Assembly: GCA_951406725.2 (NCBI GenBank)
Contig: OX597838.1
Span: 18,848,001-18,912,000 of the forward strand
Source: Octopus vulgaris
Lineage: Eukaryota
DNA: 64,000 nt
Reading direction: 5' to 3'
Shown: positions 608-56,338 of the stretch, piece by piece
Layout of the letters: every line of letters begins with the position of its first letter
How positions within the stretch are numbered: the stretch's first letter is position 1
Notes under the pieces: model-generated
Told to the model about the DNA's origin: nothing
Seen by the model: the letters and a program-made list of their open reading frames with translations, nothing else
The model's database searches: none
Made by a program: the position numbers and the translations under genes

Positions 608-1262
608 GTGGCTGTGTGGTAAGTAGCTTGCTTACCAGGCACATGGCTTCGGGTTCAGTCCCACTGCGTGGCACCTAGGGCAAGTGCCTTCTACTATCAC
701 TTCGGGCCGACCAAAGCCTTGTAAGTGGATTTGGTAGACGGAAACTGAAAGAAGCTCGTCGTATATATGTATATATATATGTATATGTGTGTGTGTGTGT
801 GTGTGTATGCGTGTATGTATATGTTTGTGTTCTGTGTTTGTCCCCCCCACCAACATCGCTCGGTAAACCGATGCTGGTGTGTTAACGTCCCTGTAACTTA
901 GCGGTTCGGCAAAAGAGATCGATAGAATAAGTACTAGGCTTACAAAGAATAAGTCTTGGGGCCGATCTGCTCGACTAAAGGTCGTGAGTTCGATTCCCGG
1001 CGACGCGTTGTGTCCTTGAGCATGACACTTTATTTTCACGTTGCTCCAGTCCACTCAGCTGGCAAAAATGAGTAGTACCTGTATTTCAAAAAAGGGCCGG
1101 CATTGTCACACTCTGTATCACGCTGAATCTCCCTGGGAACTACGTTAAGGGTACACATGTCTGTGGATTGCTCAGTCACCTGCATGTTAATTTCACGAGC
1201 AAACTGTTGTTCCGTTGATCGTATCAGCTGGGACCCTCGTCGTCGTAACCGACGGAGTGCTC
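608..1262 (+). mobile_element. SINE family C (CORE-like) joined to a 5'-truncated family D SINE
   Basis: GTGGCTGTGTGGTAAG...GGTTCAGTCCC head and CORE-like CCTAGGGCAAGT. The switch to family D (GAGTTCGATTCC...CCGACGGAGTGC) is at ~980. Confidence 0.8.
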
Positions 1263-1297
<35 letters not shown>

Positions 1298-1324
1298 TTT
1301 ATTTAAAAGTAGTAAAAATTCAAC

Positions 1325-1371
1325 AAAACCTGTTACTCGGAGTTTCACGTTCCCGTTCGTCGGACAGTTTT
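1325..1371 (-). ncRNA. Type I hammerhead ribozyme motif (U4C core variant) in a 51-bp fold-back (1298-1348/1372-1422)
   Basis: Minus strand reads ctgt-CCGACGA-acg GGAA cgt-GAAA-ctc c gag-TA-acag. Stems I, II and III all pair. Confidence 0.6.
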
Positions 1372-3108
1372 GTGAAACTCCGAGTAACAGGTTTTGTTGA
1401 ATTTCTGCTGCTTTTAAATAAAACATATTACTCTACCCCTTGTATTTGAGTACTCTTTTTTCCACCTTGTTTCACATTTATGTGTTTACTCCGGTATATA
1501 TATATATATGGTGGGGATGTACACATATATACAAATAAATGTGTATCGAATACTTAAAATAACGTCTTGTTTTATTGAAGCTATCTTCTCTTCGTCACAA
1601 GAATAAACAAATGCTTTGTGTGTTAATTGTAATCAACTCAGAATGAAGAGGGGAGATAACTAAGAATTCCTCAAAATTAACTTGTTACTAAAGTAAAGAC
1701 ATTCTTATTGTCTAGCGACAAGAGGACAGCTGTATTCACATGTTTCTGCCACAGTAAGTGTCTTTAGCACAGCGGTTGTCCTACCATGAATCCAACAGGC
1801 GAGATACTTTGACAAGTGCAAAAAGAATAGAGAAACATTCAGGGTCCAGACTAATTTGCATAATTTGATCGAAATCTTGCACTTTTGTCGATTTCGGAGG
1901 ATTCTTGATTCTTGTGTGTGGATTTGGAAGACGGAAACTGAAAGAAGCCTGTTGCATATGTATATGCGTGTGCATGCGCGAGTGTACGTGTGTGTGTGTG
2001 AGTGAGTCGTATGTGTCTTTCTGTCTGTGTTTGTCCCCCACCACCGCTTGACAACCAGTGTTGGCGTGTTTACGTACCCATGACTTAGCAGTTCGGCAAA
2101 AAGAGATCGATAACGTAAGTACAGGGCTTTAAAAATTTAAAGTACTATTGTCAACTCATTCAACCAAAATAAATTTCAAGATGGTGCTCCAGAATGGACT
2201 CAGTCTAATGACTGAAAGAAGTTAAAGATAAAAGATATAAGTCGTTATCATCAACATCTATTCACATTCATGCAAAACAGAAGGAAAACTCCTTTGTACC
2301 ATTTCGTCTGGAAACTCATGGTTCCATGAATTAGGACCTCCAATAACATGGCAGTCTTATCGATAAAACTATAATGTATTTAGTTGGATCTTGAAGTTTC
2401 AGGATATATCTGCATAGCATGCCATTTTCAGAAAAAAAACAACCAGCGATATAAGTTTACCGAAAGTTCGAGGTATCATCTAGTTGTCGCCATCGGAAGA
2501 AAACTCCTTTATGATAACTCCAATCTGCTCATAATTTTATAGCTTACTGATTCAAAGCTAATGCAAATAGATTTAGTAAACGTTGAGAAGTAATAAGCCC
2601 TTGACGATGTTCATACTTCAGCACTGGTTGTTTTTCTTTATGCCAGAGCAGTTCAGCTGGCAATAGCTATAATTTATGCTTTCTGTACTATTCAACCACG
2701 TAACCTGCTTTGAACAATGACAATCAAGCTAGTGTGCTGTGGTCAAACAGTACAACTCATTCGCCAAATACTGCCTGATCGCTTGTTCCAGTACTAGGCA
2801 CAGTAAATACTGAGAGGCAATAATATGAATCACCAACTATTTTTTAATAAATTCTGTATCACGTATTGAGCACTCTTTCCTTTCATATGTAGATATACAT
2901 GCTTATATATGTGCTTATATGTGTGGCTGGGAAGCAAGCTTCTTACCACACAGCCACACCTGCGCCGTAAGGAGCTTGCTTCCCAACCACGTGGTTCCAG
3001 GTTCAGTCCCACTGCGTGGCACCTTAGGCAAGTGTCTTCTACTGTAGCCTCGGGTCGACCAAAGCCTTGTGAGTGGATTTGGTAGACGGAAACTAAAAGA
3101 AGCCCGTC

Positions 3109-3184
<76 letters not shown>

Positions 3185-3186
<2 letters not shown>

Positions 3187-3365
3187 GAAATTCACAGGAA
3201 AACAAAAGACGAAGACAGGTGTATAAACAACAAGCAGGTGTATTAGTTTTATGCTCAGGAAGGTGAGAAAGTCTTTTACGATTCGTGCCTACGCTCGTCA
3301 ACAGAAAGGAACACGTGGAAATAAACAGAGAGAATTAAAAAAAAAACTTTTAGAGTTAGCGGTCA
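3185..3365 (-). mobile_element. Short (TA)n-associated hammerhead-bearing element, family F (degenerate copy)
   Basis: Homologous to the 9722, 23224, 30092, 45010 and 62752 copies. Minus-strand core CTGTTGA...GAAT-CGTA. Confidence 0.65.
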
Positions 3366-3620
3366 GTATGTATTTGTGTGTCTGTGTTTGTCTCCCCAAC
3401 ATCGCTTGACACTGATGTTGGTGTGTTTACGTCCCCGTAACATAGCGCTTCGGCAAAAAGAAACTGATAGAATAAGAACTAGGCTTACAAAGGATAAGTC
3501 CTGGGGTCGGTTTGTTCAACTAAAGGCGATGCTCCAGCATGGCCGCAGTCAAATAACTGAAACAAGTAAAAGTAAAAATAGGCGCAGGAGTGACTCTGTA
3601 GAAAGTAGCTTGCTTACCAA

Positions 3621-3659
<39 letters not shown>

Positions 3660-3661
<2 letters not shown>

Positions 3662-3733
3662 ATCCAATCCAGGTGGCAACATAGGTGATTGGGTACAAAA
3701 AATTCAGGGTGAATACTTGATAATTGTAAGCAC

Positions 3734-4169: not shown

Positions 4170-4757
4170 CGCATGCGTGGTTGTGTAGTAGGAAGTTTGC
4201 TTCACAACCATATGGTTCCGGGTTCAGTCCCACTGCGTGGTACCTTGAGCAAGTCTTATATATTTGATCATAACGGAGCGTTCTCTAATATTCTAAGATA
4301 TAAATACTTCTAACGTAAAATGTGGTATTTAAAATATTTAAAATCTAGCAATTAACAAGTTAATTAGATATAAAGTTAGAAATAAATGAGATGTAATCGA
4401 AACAACTTCGAACTAACGAGACATAGTTGAAGGTAAAGAGGAAGGAAAATGCCAATAGGAGCCGTCAGCACAAAGTATTTTTTACATTTACATATACAGC
4501 ATAATCCACATCTTCCAGAATATAGGTAGCAAATTCCACCATCGATTCAGCATCTTAAAGTTATTGCGTTTCCAGAAATGCTGTGAAACGGAAATGGTGC
4601 TTCCGTTTGAAACGCTTTAAAATACTGTTGATAGTCTGTGGCTCATGCTATGATCATGCTTGTTGAATTCTAAGACTGAGCCTTTTTCGAAATGTCGTCA
4701 CCAAAACAAGTTTATCCTACGGAACTGCTTCTACTTCCAAGTGGAATATATTGTAAA

Positions 4758-5152
4758 TCTATATATATAAAAGTGAGGTTGTGTGGTGTTTGTCTCCTAC
4801 GATTTAGATTCCTAACTACTCCCACATTTTGCGGTGCAGTTTAACCAAAACCGGGTATCTTATAGTCGTGATTCATATCGAGCCCTTCTGGGTATTAGCG
4901 GGCGTCTACGATGAGTCTACGATTTTTAAAAAAAATTACCATCGTTTTTTCCCATTTTTAATGCATTTTTGGCATATATAAGGGAAGTAACTCTCTAAAA
5001 ATGTATTATTAAATCTCAGAACGTAAAAAGCTACAGTAACATCCCCCTTTGTGGTTAGCCATATTGAGATGGCTATTATACTTTACATCTCTAAAAATGC
5101 TTATATAGTTATTTCCCTTACAAACCCGAGCAACGCCGGGCGATACTGCTAG
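4758..5152 (+). mobile_element. Non-autonomous Helitron
   Basis: Starts A|TC, ends CTAG|T after the hairpin CCCGAGCAACGCCGGG, no TSD. Near-identical copy at 36575-36973. Confidence 0.9.
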
Positions 5153-5611
5153 TCATTTATAAAAGTTTCTTCAGGATCTGTAACTGTATACTTACACTGC
5201 GGTCAAACGTGCAATGATGTTTCAAAGAATCTATTAACTAAATATTGTCTAAAAGTATTTTGCAAGAGAACTGAAACACTATTTGGAAAAAAAAACTTCA
5301 ATTTATCTATTGAATCACACTTTTTTTCATTTTATTTCATGTAGTTATCTATCAGTTGTTCTTGTTCTGTCCATATATTTGTCTCTTTCATCCTCGCGTT
5401 TTCTTTTCCTTCCCCTTCTTTATGTTATTATAACTTACTCTGTCTAGCTCTTCTTCCACCCTCACATAAACTTTAATCCCTTCACCATTTCTTCCCCTTA
5501 GCTTCCAACCTATTTTTCTCTTTCCATTAGTTATTTATTTCCATAGTCGTAACGATTTCGTATTTACTTTTAAATTCTTCTCTCGTAAATATACACACTT
5601 TTCCCACCGCC

Positions 5612-34800: not shown

Positions 34801-34808
34801 TGTGTGAC

Positions 34809-34926
34809 ACTTACAGCACCTAGGTTTCCCAAGCGGTCACCCATCTAAGTACTAAATAGGCTCGACGTTGCTTAACTTCGGTGATCGGGCGAGAACCGGT
34901 GCTTCCAACGTGATATGGCCTATAGC
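34809..34926 (-). rRNA. 5S rRNA gene or pseudogene (orphon)
   Basis: Minus strand GCTATAGGCCATATCACGTTG...CCGATCACCGAAGTTAAGCAACGTCGAGCC...TAGTACTTAGATGGGTGACCGCTTGGGAAACCTAGGTGCTGTAAG, ~118 nt, with boxes A and C. Several substitutions and no oligo-T terminator. Confidence 0.9.
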
Positions 34927-35925: not shown

Positions 35926-36574
35926 AGTAATTGTTATAGTCTAACGCTAAGTGAAGTAACTCTGAGGGAAGCATTGTGATAGCGTTGACGTTTCACCGCT
36001 ACCATGACAATCAACGTTATTTCTTCTTTAAGTAGAAGTTTGAAAGCTGTTTAAATACACAAGTCTCCGAAATCCAAGTGTCAGCAGAAGGGCACCCAGG
36101 GGTCAAGCCCTAAATGCGGCCCGGCTACTTTAGAGTGTAAGAAGCTAAGGGCCGAAACATTTACCGGGCGGGGGTTACTTTCTGAAGATCTTCCGCTTTT
36201 CAACTCTCTTGAGAGTTTCTTACCGCTAGAAAACAGTCCATTTAGAAGCAATCGAGACAGCCTCTACCTGGTCACTCAGCCCACTAAACATACCAACCAA
36301 ATGTCACTCAAATCAAATTAGATACGGTATTTCTTGATAGGGAAGGGGATCAATAATCCGGCAAGTTTGGGGCCGGAAGTGTCCTGAATTTCTGGTTTCT
36401 CCAGTTTTCTGAAGACAGCCTAAATATATTCTTTAGATGTGAAAATTGGCGCTAAATTGTATTTAACAGATTCAAATTAATACACTTCTAAAGCAGGGCC
36501 TGTTTGATGTTTATTGATACACTTATAATTCTTTAAAATATATCATAAGCGAAGAAAGGTAAAGAACCTGATTA

Positions 36575-36973
36575 TCTTTATATATAAAAGTAAGGTTGTG
36601 TGCTGTCTGTCTCCTATGATTTAGATTCCTAACTACTCCCACATTTTGCGGTGCAGTTTAACCAAAACCGGGTATCTTATAGTCGTGATTCATATCGAGC
36701 CCTTCTGGGTATTAGCGCGCGTCTACGGTGAGTCTACGATTTAAAAAAAAATTTACCATCAATTTTTCCCATTTTTAATGCATTTTTGGCATATATAAGA
36801 GAAGTAACTCTCTAAAAATTTATTATTAAATCTCAGACCGTAAAAAGCTACAGTAACACCACCACCCCTTTGTGGTTAGCCATATTGAGATGGCTATTAT
36901 ACTTTACATCTCTAAAAATGCTTATATAGTTATTTCCCTTACAAACCCGAGCAACGCCGGGCGATACTGCTAG
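36575..36973 (+). mobile_element. Non-autonomous Helitron (second copy)
   Basis: A|TC...hairpin...CTAG|T, homologous to 4758-5152. Confidence 0.9.
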
Positions 36974-37122
36974 TATTTAATAAATTAATACACTTCTAAA
37001 GCTGTTGGGTATTTATTACGTTTATGCATTTGTTTGCAAGATTCCTGAGGTGAATTGACAAAAGAAAAAAATGACCATCCTCAAATATAACAATATGTTT
37101 CATCTATACCAATCCATTAAAA

Positions 37123-40191: not shown

Positions 40192-40923
40192 TTGCCTCCG
40201 CCTTAGCGAAGGCGGCGGTATTGTTTTCAGTGTGGAGGCGCAATGGCCCAATGGTTAGGGCAGCGGACTCGCGGTCGGAGGACCGAGGTTTCGATTCCCA
40301 GACCGGGCATTGTGTGTGTTTATTGAGCGGAAACACCTAAAAGCTCCACGAGTCTCCGGCAGGGGGGTGGCGACCCCTGTTGTACTCTTTCGCCCCAACT
40401 TTCTTTCACTCTTTCTTCCTGTTTCTTGTCCCCGACTTCCTACGCAACCGATGAGCCTGGATGCTGCGCATTCATCCATCCGTCGATGCTCTCGGTGTCG
40501 GGGATTGACCTGCTTTCTCTTCTGCAGGTCTTATGAATAGCAAAGGACCACGGTTCGAACCGCTCGGACCGGACCGCTCAACAGCAACAGCAGCAACAGC
40601 ATTGTTTTCAGTCATGTTTGTTTGTTTGTTTGTTTGTCAGTGGACCAGATATCTCAAGAACCACAGGATGGATTCGGATGGAACTTTCAGGAATGTTTGG
40701 CCTCGTGTCTGGCATGAACTGATTAGATTTTTCGATCGATCCGCTGCCGGACAAGAATTCTGGATTATTATTCCTGCTTTTTTACTTAATTTTTGAGAGC
40801 GGTCGGATTCATTTTTATTAGTTTATTTCAGATATTCTCATTTTAAAAATCACCTCCGGCTAATCGTTGAGAGGACATTGGTGTTGCCTTGGCGAAGGTT
40901 TGCGCTCTCTGAGTGCTCTGGTT
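40192..40923 (+). mobile_element. Helentron-associated non-autonomous element (HINE/DINE-like), interrupted by a family B SINE (40232-40600, tail type 4)
   Basis: 5' subterminal GCCTCCGCC, (GTTT)n microsatellite, 3' GGCG(G)AGGT plus hairpin GCGCTCTCTGAGTGC. SINE TSD ATTGTTTTCAGT and (CAACAG)n tail. Confidence 0.65.
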
Positions 40924-42110
40924 TATTTTTTAGAATGACATTGTAAGCTAGGTGAGAGAGGCCGGGTCTTACTGATTTGAACATAAAACAGCCAAAATAT
41001 TCGGGCCTGATATGACCGGTTTAAATGCTAAAAAAAGGGGACAGTTATAACAACTACCATTTCTTAATAATCATCTAGAAAAGTTTTGTTTTCCGGTTTT
41101 TTACTTAGTTTTTGAGAGCAGTCGGGTTCATTTTTAGTATTCCCGTTTGTGAGAGCAATCAAGTTTATTTCAGATATTCTCATTTTAAAAATCACCTCCG
41201 GCTAATCGTTGAGAGGACGTTGGTGTTGCCTTGGCGGAGGTTTGCGCTCTCTGAGTGCTCTGGTTTATTTTTTAGAATGACATTGTAAGCTAGGTGAGAG
41301 AGGCCGGGTCTTACTGATTTGAACATAAAACAGCCAGAATATTCGGGCCTGATATGACCGGTTTAAATGCTAAAAAAAAAGGGGACAGTTATAGCAACTA
41401 CCATTTCTTAATAATCATTTAGAAAAGTTTTGTTTTCCGGTTTTTTACTTAGTTTTTGAGAGCAGTCGGGTTCATTTTTAGTATCCCCGTTTGTGAGAGC
41501 AATCTAGTTTATTTCAGATATTCTCATTTTAAAAATCACCTCTGGCTAATCGTTGAGAGGACATTGGTGTTGCCTTGGCGGAGGTTTGCGCTCTCTGAGT
41601 GCTCTGGTTTATTTTTTAGATTGACATTGTAAGCTAGGTGAGAGAGGCCGGGTCTTACTGATTTGAACATAAAACAGCCAGAATATTCGGGCCTGATATG
41701 GCCGGTTTAAATGCTAAAAAAAAGGGGACAGTTATAGCAACTACCATTTCTTAATAATCATCTAGAAAAGTTTTGTTTTCCGGTTTTTTACTTACTTTTT
41801 GAGAGCAGTCGGGTTCATTTTTAGTATCCCCGTTTGTGAGAGCAATCTAGTTTATTTCAGATATTCTCATTTTAAAAATCACCTCTGGCTAATCGTTGAG
41901 AGGACATTGGTGTTGCCTTGGCGGAGGTTTGCGCTCTCTGAGTGCTCTGGTTTATTTTTTATTGACATTGTAAGCTAGGTGAGAGAGGCCGGTCTGAGAG
42001 AGGCCGGGTCTTACTGATTTGAACATAAAACAGCCAGAATATTCGGGCCTGATATGACCGGTTTAAATGCTAAAAAAGGGGACAGTTATAGCAACTACCA
42101 TTTCTTAATA
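40780..42110. repeat. ~343-bp tandem repeat, about 4 copies (HINE 3' end plus flank)
   Basis: TTTATTTCAGATATTCTC recurs at ~40822, 41164, 41508 and 41850. The last unit resumes at 42512 after an insertion. Confidence 0.9.
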
Positions 42111-42513
42111 GCAATAATAAATCCTCTCTCGAAGACCTAAGTACTACATACGGACTATAGTTTCAAGGTAATTGCCTCTCGTCAACGCATGGTAAGCACC
42201 GGTCTTCGATGAAGGAGTCCCCTTGCAAATAATATTTAACGTTTTTCACAGCAACCACTGTCACTGATTTAGAAAAACTGTCTGAAAGCAATAATAAATC
42301 TCTGAACGAGATATAAACAGTAACCGCTCGACAACGTAAGGTGTACTAGCCATCTGAATGTGGCTAGCCACTGGGGGTGGGGTGTTACTGATGCTTTTAG
42401 CCCCAGGCGATCAACGTCACCAGATGGACTTTAGACACTATCTCAGTGCCCTTGTGTTATTTGCAAAGGGAGGTCATCATCCCTCGAAGACCTAAGTACT
42501 ACATACGGACTAT
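42111..42513 (-). mobile_element. Retrozyme-like insertion with hammerhead at 42147-42191 and a 31-bp terminal redundancy
   Basis: Minus strand catgcg-TTGACGA-gagg(6)cctt-GAAA-ctatag-TC-cgtatg. CTCGAAGACC...CGGACTAT is repeated at 42128-42158 and 42483-42513. Confidence 0.65.
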
Positions 42514-43029
42514 CATCTAGAAAAGTTTTGTTGGAGCTTTGTAGAAATGTTGATGCATGTTAGAACAGTCAGTTAGAGACATTTATTTAGTATCCAGGAT
42601 TTCAGACTCTATGTTACTAACATACCTAACTGTTCGTATTTTACTTAGAAAAGTTCTTCCATCTTGTCTGAAAGCTGCCAAAAACCTACAGAAACTGCAT
42701 AATATTTCCAATATCGATCGGTCGAATGATTGATTCGGAGTAAAAAGTTTCTACGCTCTTCCCGCTTCTTCTCTTTAATATTTCCGTCGAATCACATGTC
42801 GGCACACTTCCAGTTATAATGCAGTTTTACGTCGATAAATACACTGCCAGGTGGATGACGGTTAAAAGGGTTGGGTGCTCTGGATGTGCCCGGGGGGTGG
42901 GGGTGGGGGGCGAGGTGGCTGTTGTTAATGGCGCTACGGTAGGTGGGAGGGTGGGTGGGTGGGTGAGTGGGTGGGGTTAGCAGTGGTAGTGTTAGGAGTA
43001 TACTTGCGGTGGCGGAGAAGCAGAAAAAG

Positions 43030-55690: not shown

Positions 55691-55960
55691 CGCATAAACA
55701 CTGGTGTGGCTGTGGGGTAGGAATTTTGGTTCCCAACCGTATAGTTCCGGGTTCAGTTTAACTGAGGAACAATGGGAAAATGTCTTCTACTATAGTCTCG
55801 GGCCAACCAAAGCCTTGTCTGTGGATTTAGTAGACGGAAACTAAAATAAGCCCGTCGTGTGTGTGTGTAACAATTGGTGCTTAGCGCCTCATCAGCTCAA
55901 ATCCAGCCCATTTGTGACCGTAGATGTTCCAGACGTAATTAGTCTGTCTTTTATTGTGAC

Positions 55961-56012
<52 letters not shown>

Positions 56013-56030
56013 GTGTGTGTGTGTGTGTGT

Positions 56031-56338
56031 GTGGAGGCGCAATGGCCCAGTGGTTAAGGCAGCGGACTCGCGGTCGTAGGGTCGTGGTTTCGTTTCCCAG
56101 ACCGGGCGATGTGAGTGTTTATTGAGCGAAAACACCTAAAGGTCCACGAGGCTCCGGTAGGGGGTGGTGGTGATCCCTGCTGTACTCTTTCGCCACAACT
56201 TTCTCTCACTCTTTCTTCTGTTGGCCTGCTCGCTTAGCCAGCGTGGTGGCGTCATTTGAAGGCTAAAACAATGCGAAGCGCATTGTGACCAGCGATGTGT
56301 AGCAACATCTGATAGCCTGGTCGGTCACGGTGATCACA

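Follow-up and report, generated by a model that had tools for sequence, protein, structure and literature searches.

The window, i.e., the whole stretch of 64,000 nucleotides of Octopus vulgaris DNA that was analysed, harbours on its plus strand a 343/344-bp tandem array of 3.7 copies (40819..42110). The last unit is interrupted between TTCTTAATA and ATCATCTAG and resumes for 21 nt past the insertion (42512-42532); the other three units are continuous there. The sequence-only reading had stated that the insertion splits the last unit cleanly and postdates the array, and the intact site in the other units supports an insertion once the array had already formed. Within 40640-42110, the array unit holds a motif that resembles a Helentron 3' end plus flank, and the array may represent a rolling-circle tandem insertion.

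The inserted element (42111..42511, minus strand) measures 401 bp and consists, in this order, of monomer positions 352-355, a full lap 1-355, then 1-32 and finally 211-220. A target-site duplication is absent, as is typical for one-armed copies, and 2 nt at one border (42512-42513) as well as 1 nt at the other (42110) match element and target alike, representing end microhomologies. The 355-nt monomer, counted from cut site to cut site (42153..42507, minus strand), folds into a branched structure closed by hammerhead stem I. It lacks a long ORF (longest stop-free stretch 60 aa, longest ATG ORF 45 aa), in agreement with the sequence-only reading. The predicted cut sites lie between 42508 and 42507 and between 42153 and 42152, so that the proposed ribozyme-to-ribozyme spacing of 355 nt holds. 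The upstream site is nevertheless not a complete ribozyme, since only 6 nt precede the cut.

The terminal redundancy is longer than originally described. It comprises 38 nt with 2 mismatches on the minus strand, with a first copy at 42476..42513, which holds the upstream predicted cut and lacks the 5' half of the ribozyme, and a second at 42121..42158 (monomer 350-355 plus 1-32). The repeat of 31 nt noted previously is its exact part, and it does not form the end of the element. The true 3' end (42111..42123, minus strand) follows beyond it as 13 nt corresponding to monomer 208-220, i.e., the distal tail site T of the family. These 13 nt are joined to monomer 30-32 via a GAT microhomology, and monomer 33-207 is missing from the terminal lap. 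Internal copies of the two family end sites, as defined by family end counts, are found in the full lap on the minus strand: the proximal site P (monomer 169-178, mode 175) at 42330..42339 and the distal site T (monomer 215-224, mode 222) at 42284..42293. Site P is contained in a domain (42315..42482, minus strand) closed by a long-range helix of monomer 26-36 with 183-193, which is indicated by between-family covariation.

The complete hammerhead motif (42129..42211, minus strand) is of type I with an extended stem I, occurs once per lap and is predicted to cleave. It is composed of a 5' arm (42191-42186), the core UUGACGA (42185-42179, U3-G8), stem II (42178-42165), GAAA, a palindromic stem III (42161-42154) preceding the predicted cut, a 3' arm (42152-42147) and the distal part of stem I reaching to 42129. 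The 6-bp stem I, the UUGACGA core and the stem III palindrome ACUAUAGU are all present as described by the sequence-only reading; its designation as a full hammerhead needs qualification in that the core, with U3 opposite G8, departs from the consensus. Rfam hammerhead models yielded no match, whether at the gathering score or with E ≤ 10. Between this family and a sister family stems I-III covary, with 90.7 % of cells paired and 19 double changes; none of 500 shuffles scored as high and slid controls reached 16-54 %, related sequences inflating the score. The long-range helix likewise covaries between the two families (two pairs with double changes), whereas the single-sequence minimum-energy fold pairs monomer 26-50 elsewhere. 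Compared with shuffled sequences, folding of the monomer is stable (z of -4.3 as linear and -5.5 as circular molecule).

The unusual core is essentially fixed in the family of the window copy (U3 in 103 of 104 copies, G8 in all 104), in departure from the consensus combinations C3-G8 or U3-A8. The sister family, in contrast, carries the consensus core CUGAUGA in 15 of 17 motifs listed. None of 28 subfamily-diagnostic columns falls into the ribozyme region (3.7 expected, p = 0.015), although private changes are about equally frequent there and elsewhere (1.06 versus 1.22 %), which suggests selection on the ribozyme motif, wobble included. A C3U change alone reduces hammerhead activity. In the portions of the literature available, core changes are generally regarded as damaging (PMC3088659), a natural U3-G8 core carries a two-base insertion as well (PMC7151607), and a saltern variant related to the latter was slow when tested (PMC3088659). 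The sister family (L073-L092, L065:737-1004) is the older one and shows a C-A mismatch at the base of stem II.

Upstream of the ribozyme, a snRNA-type promoter (PSE)-like motif around ATCAGTG was found by motif match at 42256..42276 (minus strand), which predicts a transcription start near 42210 (monomer A298), or 57 nt upstream of the cut. The PSE profile was built from four promoter types, and ATCAGT followed by G or C is located at -57 to -61 in 26 of 28 U1/U2 loci. In both families the best match lies on the sense strand at monomer ~240, i.e., ~58 nt before the predicted start, with a score reached by 1 of 500 shuffles for the family of the window copy and by 12 of 500 for the sister family. 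Thus, the unit is predicted to possess an internal promoter of the U1/U2 type. If this promoter lies upstream of the start, a daughter copy could regain it only by copying past one lap or by later duplication. The promoter motif is missing from two U2 copies (L241, L248), both of which are preceded by the same unrelated sequence; this may be the end of a different element that inserted at the U2 start. A bacterial promoter scan is irrelevant here.

The 2.8-Gb genome of the window contains many family copies with 91-99 % identity. Copies were drawn from the best 40 candidates scored per search and hence represent top-ranked matches and not a random sample; likewise, the first-look candidate numbers of 1,194-3,669 are not copy numbers. 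Once overlapping loci had been merged and three segmental duplicates set aside, 71 independent insertions remained for analysis. They are dispersed over many contigs, with fixed 3' ends and variable 5' ends all around the unit, and units are joined head to tail, with no intervening sequence, for up to 3.5 laps. The 355-nt tandem unit falls within the 150-450 bp of known retrozymes and lacks both ORF and LTR. The 355-nt hammerhead unit is real, and the family is young, widely scattered and protein-free. With many dispersed, head-to-tail and permuted copies and no attached PLE ORF, it is of the metazoan non-LTR retrozyme type, as originally proposed. The sister family (356 nt, ~70 % identity) has the same two ends at the places of P and T.

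Several further observations concern individual copies and the remainder of the window. One two-armed insertion junction recurs at three places (L002, L003, L137), with arm-to-arm conversion in L003, and another insertion is also triplicated (L028, L096, L097). An apparent heterogeneity at position 78 proved to be an indel alignment artefact. Two non-autonomous repeats of the window (36574-36984 and 4757-5163), presumably Helitron-like, are 94 % alike and display a TC start, a 3' hairpin and a CTAG end. Both contain a 63-65-bp piece, 78-82 % like monomer 110-172 and ending at the P site, which is likely an old retrozyme fragment carried by a DNA element. A 5S rRNA gene or copy is located at 34808-34926 (minus strand, 92.6 bits), and a t44 match at 55960-56043 was discarded as a microsatellite artefact.

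The mode of insertion is reflected by the ends of the copies. From the 71 insertions, 112 outward ends could be counted, 99 of which lie at one of two places (52 at P, 47 at T, 13 elsewhere); the distance from P to T corresponds to a PLE-type tail of ~47 nt. Among 41 back-to-back two-armed copies, 30 combine P with T, 2 are T+T, none is P+P and 9 have another end, so that P+T pairing accounts for 30 of 32 classifiable cases (p = 2.5e-7 versus 50:50). Target duplications of 12-17 bp, called with one mismatch and 6-nt boundary slack allowed, flank all 15 P+T copies outside microsatellites; they occur in 3 of the 18 one-armed copies, and among shuffled flank pairs the count is 9 of 210. The flanks are AT-rich (83 %), and 33 of the 71 insertions reside in (AT)n.

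A matching layout is displayed by coding PLEs of the same genome, which possess intact 781-aa RT+GIY-YIG frames and whose inverted copies, lying at (AT)n, bear a tail at one end but not at the other (4 of 4 read). In the accessible text of previous reports, inverted PLE insertions carry a tail at one end (PMC8557442), and a PLE protein cuts both strands of AT-rich DNA, with internal starts at two adjacent tail-defining sites (PMC11167929). Together with the paired ends and target duplications of the octopus family, this layout and these reports make a PLE step in copying the unit well supported and very probable. No sequence shared with the unit was detected in 62 PLE stretches, which derive from 150 scored of 6,136 GIY-YIG candidates and belong mostly to one clade, and a homolog search from the PLE family retrieved close relatives of the 781-aa family only. 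Two matches beside PLEs turned out to be separate sister-family insertions; a recurring flank in two sequencing runs mapped to one genomic place, and a loose TATA..CTCG likeness between tails was out of register and rejected. The young PLE family (L061-L068, L072) comprises ~15 intact 781-aa frames, an upstream frame of 330-380 aa and a 38-nt tail. Other PLE families of this genome contain minimal hammerheads with U3-A8 or CCGAAGA cores. In two cases (L093/L188 and L104/L187) a retrozyme lies beside an inverted PLE in one (AT)n tract, i.e., in a shared target.

Against this family background, the window copy can be read anew. The sequence-only reading had proposed slightly more than one lap, which does not agree with a 3' end at the internal T site and the absence of monomer 33-207. 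Since its last 13 nt coincide with the ~222 end of the family, the copy likely represents a ~1.6-lap product, begun at the distal site (~220), without ~175 nt. Its start 6 nt before the cut looks like ordinary 5' truncation, and only 3 of 31 arms reaching the cut stop near it. A skip of monomer 33-207 during copying is plausible, since short jumps like that of the window copy are also found in L006, L028, L129 and L170 and the skipped segment extends across the domain that the covarying helix closes; a later deletion is a possible alternative. In junction records of four other sequencing runs, fewer than 31 letters fall on the element side at both junctions, and the 401-nt skip has only 21 letters on one side, a sequence also supplied by other array units; these records thus demonstrate neither the insertion nor an empty allele. 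Lacking the upstream promoter and a complete first ribozyme, the window copy is likely not a source copy.

For the template of this copying, a 355-nt RNA circle used in PLE-type fashion is favoured as the rather more probable reading. In a short-query set, 28 of 48 arms run through the ribozyme junction and 14 are longer than one lap. Arm ends do not pile up at the cut (3 of 31) or at the predicted transcription start, where 3 of 64 stop on the first pass and 1 of 14 on the second. Laps differ by 2.2 % within an insertion versus 5.6 % between insertions, and in 651 of 680 comparisons between laps the subfamily-diagnostic bases are the same. Thirteen rare variants occur in every lap of the insertion concerned, and two of these are private to single arms of ~1.4 laps; arm-to-arm conversion, as in L002/L003, can mimic such single-template variants, and two insertions (L107 and L108) each mix two haplotypes. 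Multi-lap length alone does not prove rolling copying because of DNA duplication in long arrays: the longest arrays include at least six (L007, L009, L011, L022, L029, L104) whose middle laps have private variants in common, an indication that units were duplicated at the DNA level once the element had inserted. Arm stops lie near each other on the circle in 15 of 29 cases (within 60 nt, 10.4 expected), which is not significant (p about 0.06) and confounded by hairpin microhomology. An excess of A>G over T>C among all-lap variants (6 versus 1, p about 0.06-0.09) is a hint only, and stops of the T arm at 178-180, beside the P start, in two copies are anecdotal. The unit is covered by contigs from four sequencing runs presumed to be RNA, and two of these show a 355-nt go-back joint, as tandem genomic copies also do.

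The same PLE machinery might instead use a linear template, if the U3-G8 ribozyme cuts poorly and uncut multimers are transcribed from arrays of at least 3 laps that unequal crossing-over regenerates, so that no circle would be needed. Such an origin is possible, if rather unlikely. The unit duplications just described speak for it, as such long arrays could serve as linear templates, and so does the non-consensus core of 103 of 104 copies. As far as the available text of the respective studies goes, uncut RNA was moreover the dominant template of a lizard PLE in vitro, where ribozyme mutants were still inserted (PMC11167929), and 8 of 9 Xenopus retrozyme dimers showed no cleavage in vitro (bioRxiv 10.64898/2026.07.22.740005). 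However, other sampled insertions do not show the variants private to the long arrays, arrays do not exceed 3.5 laps and no long satellite occurs among the best 40 scored candidates, 6 of 7 arms without duplication signs run past the second predicted start, and subfamily changes spare the ribozyme region. A further reading, in which the unit is the pseudo-LTR of an unsampled coding PLE and the copies are its 5'-truncated tandem ends, is very improbable. Tail, inversion and microsatellite bias are indeed PLE features (PMC8557442), Xenopus retrozymes resemble PLE pseudo-LTRs (bioRxiv 10.64898/2026.07.22.740005), both according to the sections available, and a PLE-like ORF lies within about 1 kb at two loci. 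Yet both neighbouring PLEs are separate elements with their own unrelated ends, (AT)n lying in between, 72 of 74 loci show no PLE-like ORF in the fetched flanks and in none of the 74 is an ORF joined to the unit; the direct head-to-tail joins and the 5' ends all around the unit also speak against it. The permuted and tandem copies without adjoining PLE ORF that the sequence-only reading had suggested looking for were thus found. Its alternative of a tandem PLE pseudo-LTR is not a real one: the unit is no collinear end of any sampled coding PLE and yet bears the PLE insertion footprint. Spread at the DNA level without an RNA step, as minisatellite or around a chance ribozyme-like motif, would fit the missing Rfam match and the local duplications; it is scarcely credible and largely refuted by the end statistics. 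Opposed to it are copies dispersed over many contigs whose 3' ends are fixed while the 5' ends vary, their inversions and target duplications, and the covarying ribozyme stems.

Taking the circular template as the preferred reading, we infer circularity of this retrozyme, and the following course may be envisaged. A source copy of more than ~1.85 laps would be transcribed from the internal snRNA-type promoter, the transcript beginning 57 nt upstream of the cut. Two hammerheads, probably pairing via their palindromic stem III, would release the monomer, which a host ligase would close. The AT-rich target would be cut with a ~12-17-nt stagger, as the pattern of duplications indicates, and both 3' ends would prime inside the RNA, at ~175 and ~222, giving rise to the back-to-back arms seen; the enzyme is likely a PLE reverse transcriptase/GIY-YIG protein. 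One-armed copies mostly show no duplication, and copying past one lap would regenerate the upstream promoter. The window copy would be such a one-armed product, begun at ~220 and ended shortly beyond the second junction, in which monomer 33-207 was either skipped in copying or deleted later. One may further speculate that the circle hammerhead is tuned down by the fixed U3-G8 wobble so that circles survive, that a PLE dimer primes both strands, and that single-molecule A-to-G edits are carried into all laps of the new insertion, a proposal that we regard as quite doubtful. If it applied, each subunit of the PLE dimer would start at its own fixed site on one RNA circle.

Much of this agrees with known systems, as far as the accessible portions of the respective reports allow comparison. 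Metazoan non-LTR retrozymes share the ORF-less tandem unit of 150-450 bp with one type I hammerhead, as well as the short palindromic stem III, the stable fold and the co-occurrence with PLEs (PMC7229834; bioRxiv 10.64898/2026.07.22.740005). They differ by a C3-G8 instead of U3-G8 core and by long arrays instead of mostly dispersed insertions of 0.1-2 laps; these portions describe neither two fixed internal ends nor two-armed insertions, and a homologous pseudo-LTR was not found for the octopus unit. Endonuclease-bearing PLEs (PMC8557442, PMC11167929, PMC4209133) have in common with it the 5' truncation, the inverted second arm, the single-end tail, AT-rich/(TA)n targets, two internal start sites and a hammerhead. 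Unlike them, the octopus unit is devoid of an ORF, its tail measures ~47 nt compared to 30-40 nt, its stem I is full-size in contrast to their minimal hammerhead, and it shares no sequence with the PLEs sampled. In newt satellite 2, as cited in PMC2220036, a tandem unit likewise bears a hammerhead and, inside the unit, a snRNA-type promoter motif; the promoter of the octopus unit is a motif match, and its family is dispersed rather than a satellite. Non-autonomous Chlamys PLE derivatives such as MRC1 (PMC8557442) are also non-coding, head-to-tail multicopy and moved by PLEs, but their 3' ends are like those of their autonomous partners, and the passage does not present them as hammerhead units.

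A circular template was proposed for PLEs in 2014 (PMC4209133), and a circular template together with PLE mobilisation for retrozymes (PMC7229834, bioRxiv 10.64898/2026.07.22.740005). The retrozyme class, the PLE tail, the inverted layout and the circular-template proposal are thus already published; particular to the present case are the fixation of the U3-G8 core and the revised anatomy of the window copy. The literature considered contains no report of paired-end statistics or of two-site, two-strand priming for a retrozyme and no description of a cephalopod retrozyme, while supplements may list such families. In the searchable text of an octopus repeat paper (PMC13282606), a term search found ribozymes unmentioned.

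PLE mobilisation of retrozymes from circular RNA was proposed in 2014-2020, and proof is lacking in the portions of the literature examined. The octopus family provides countable genomic support for the PLE step, namely internal starts at two sites, each belonging to one of the cut strands, and a stagger of 12-17 nt, and its 355-nt unit represents a test substrate for the existing in vitro PLE assay. Moreover, its fixed U3-G8 core raises the question whether a retrozyme needs a fast ribozyme at all.
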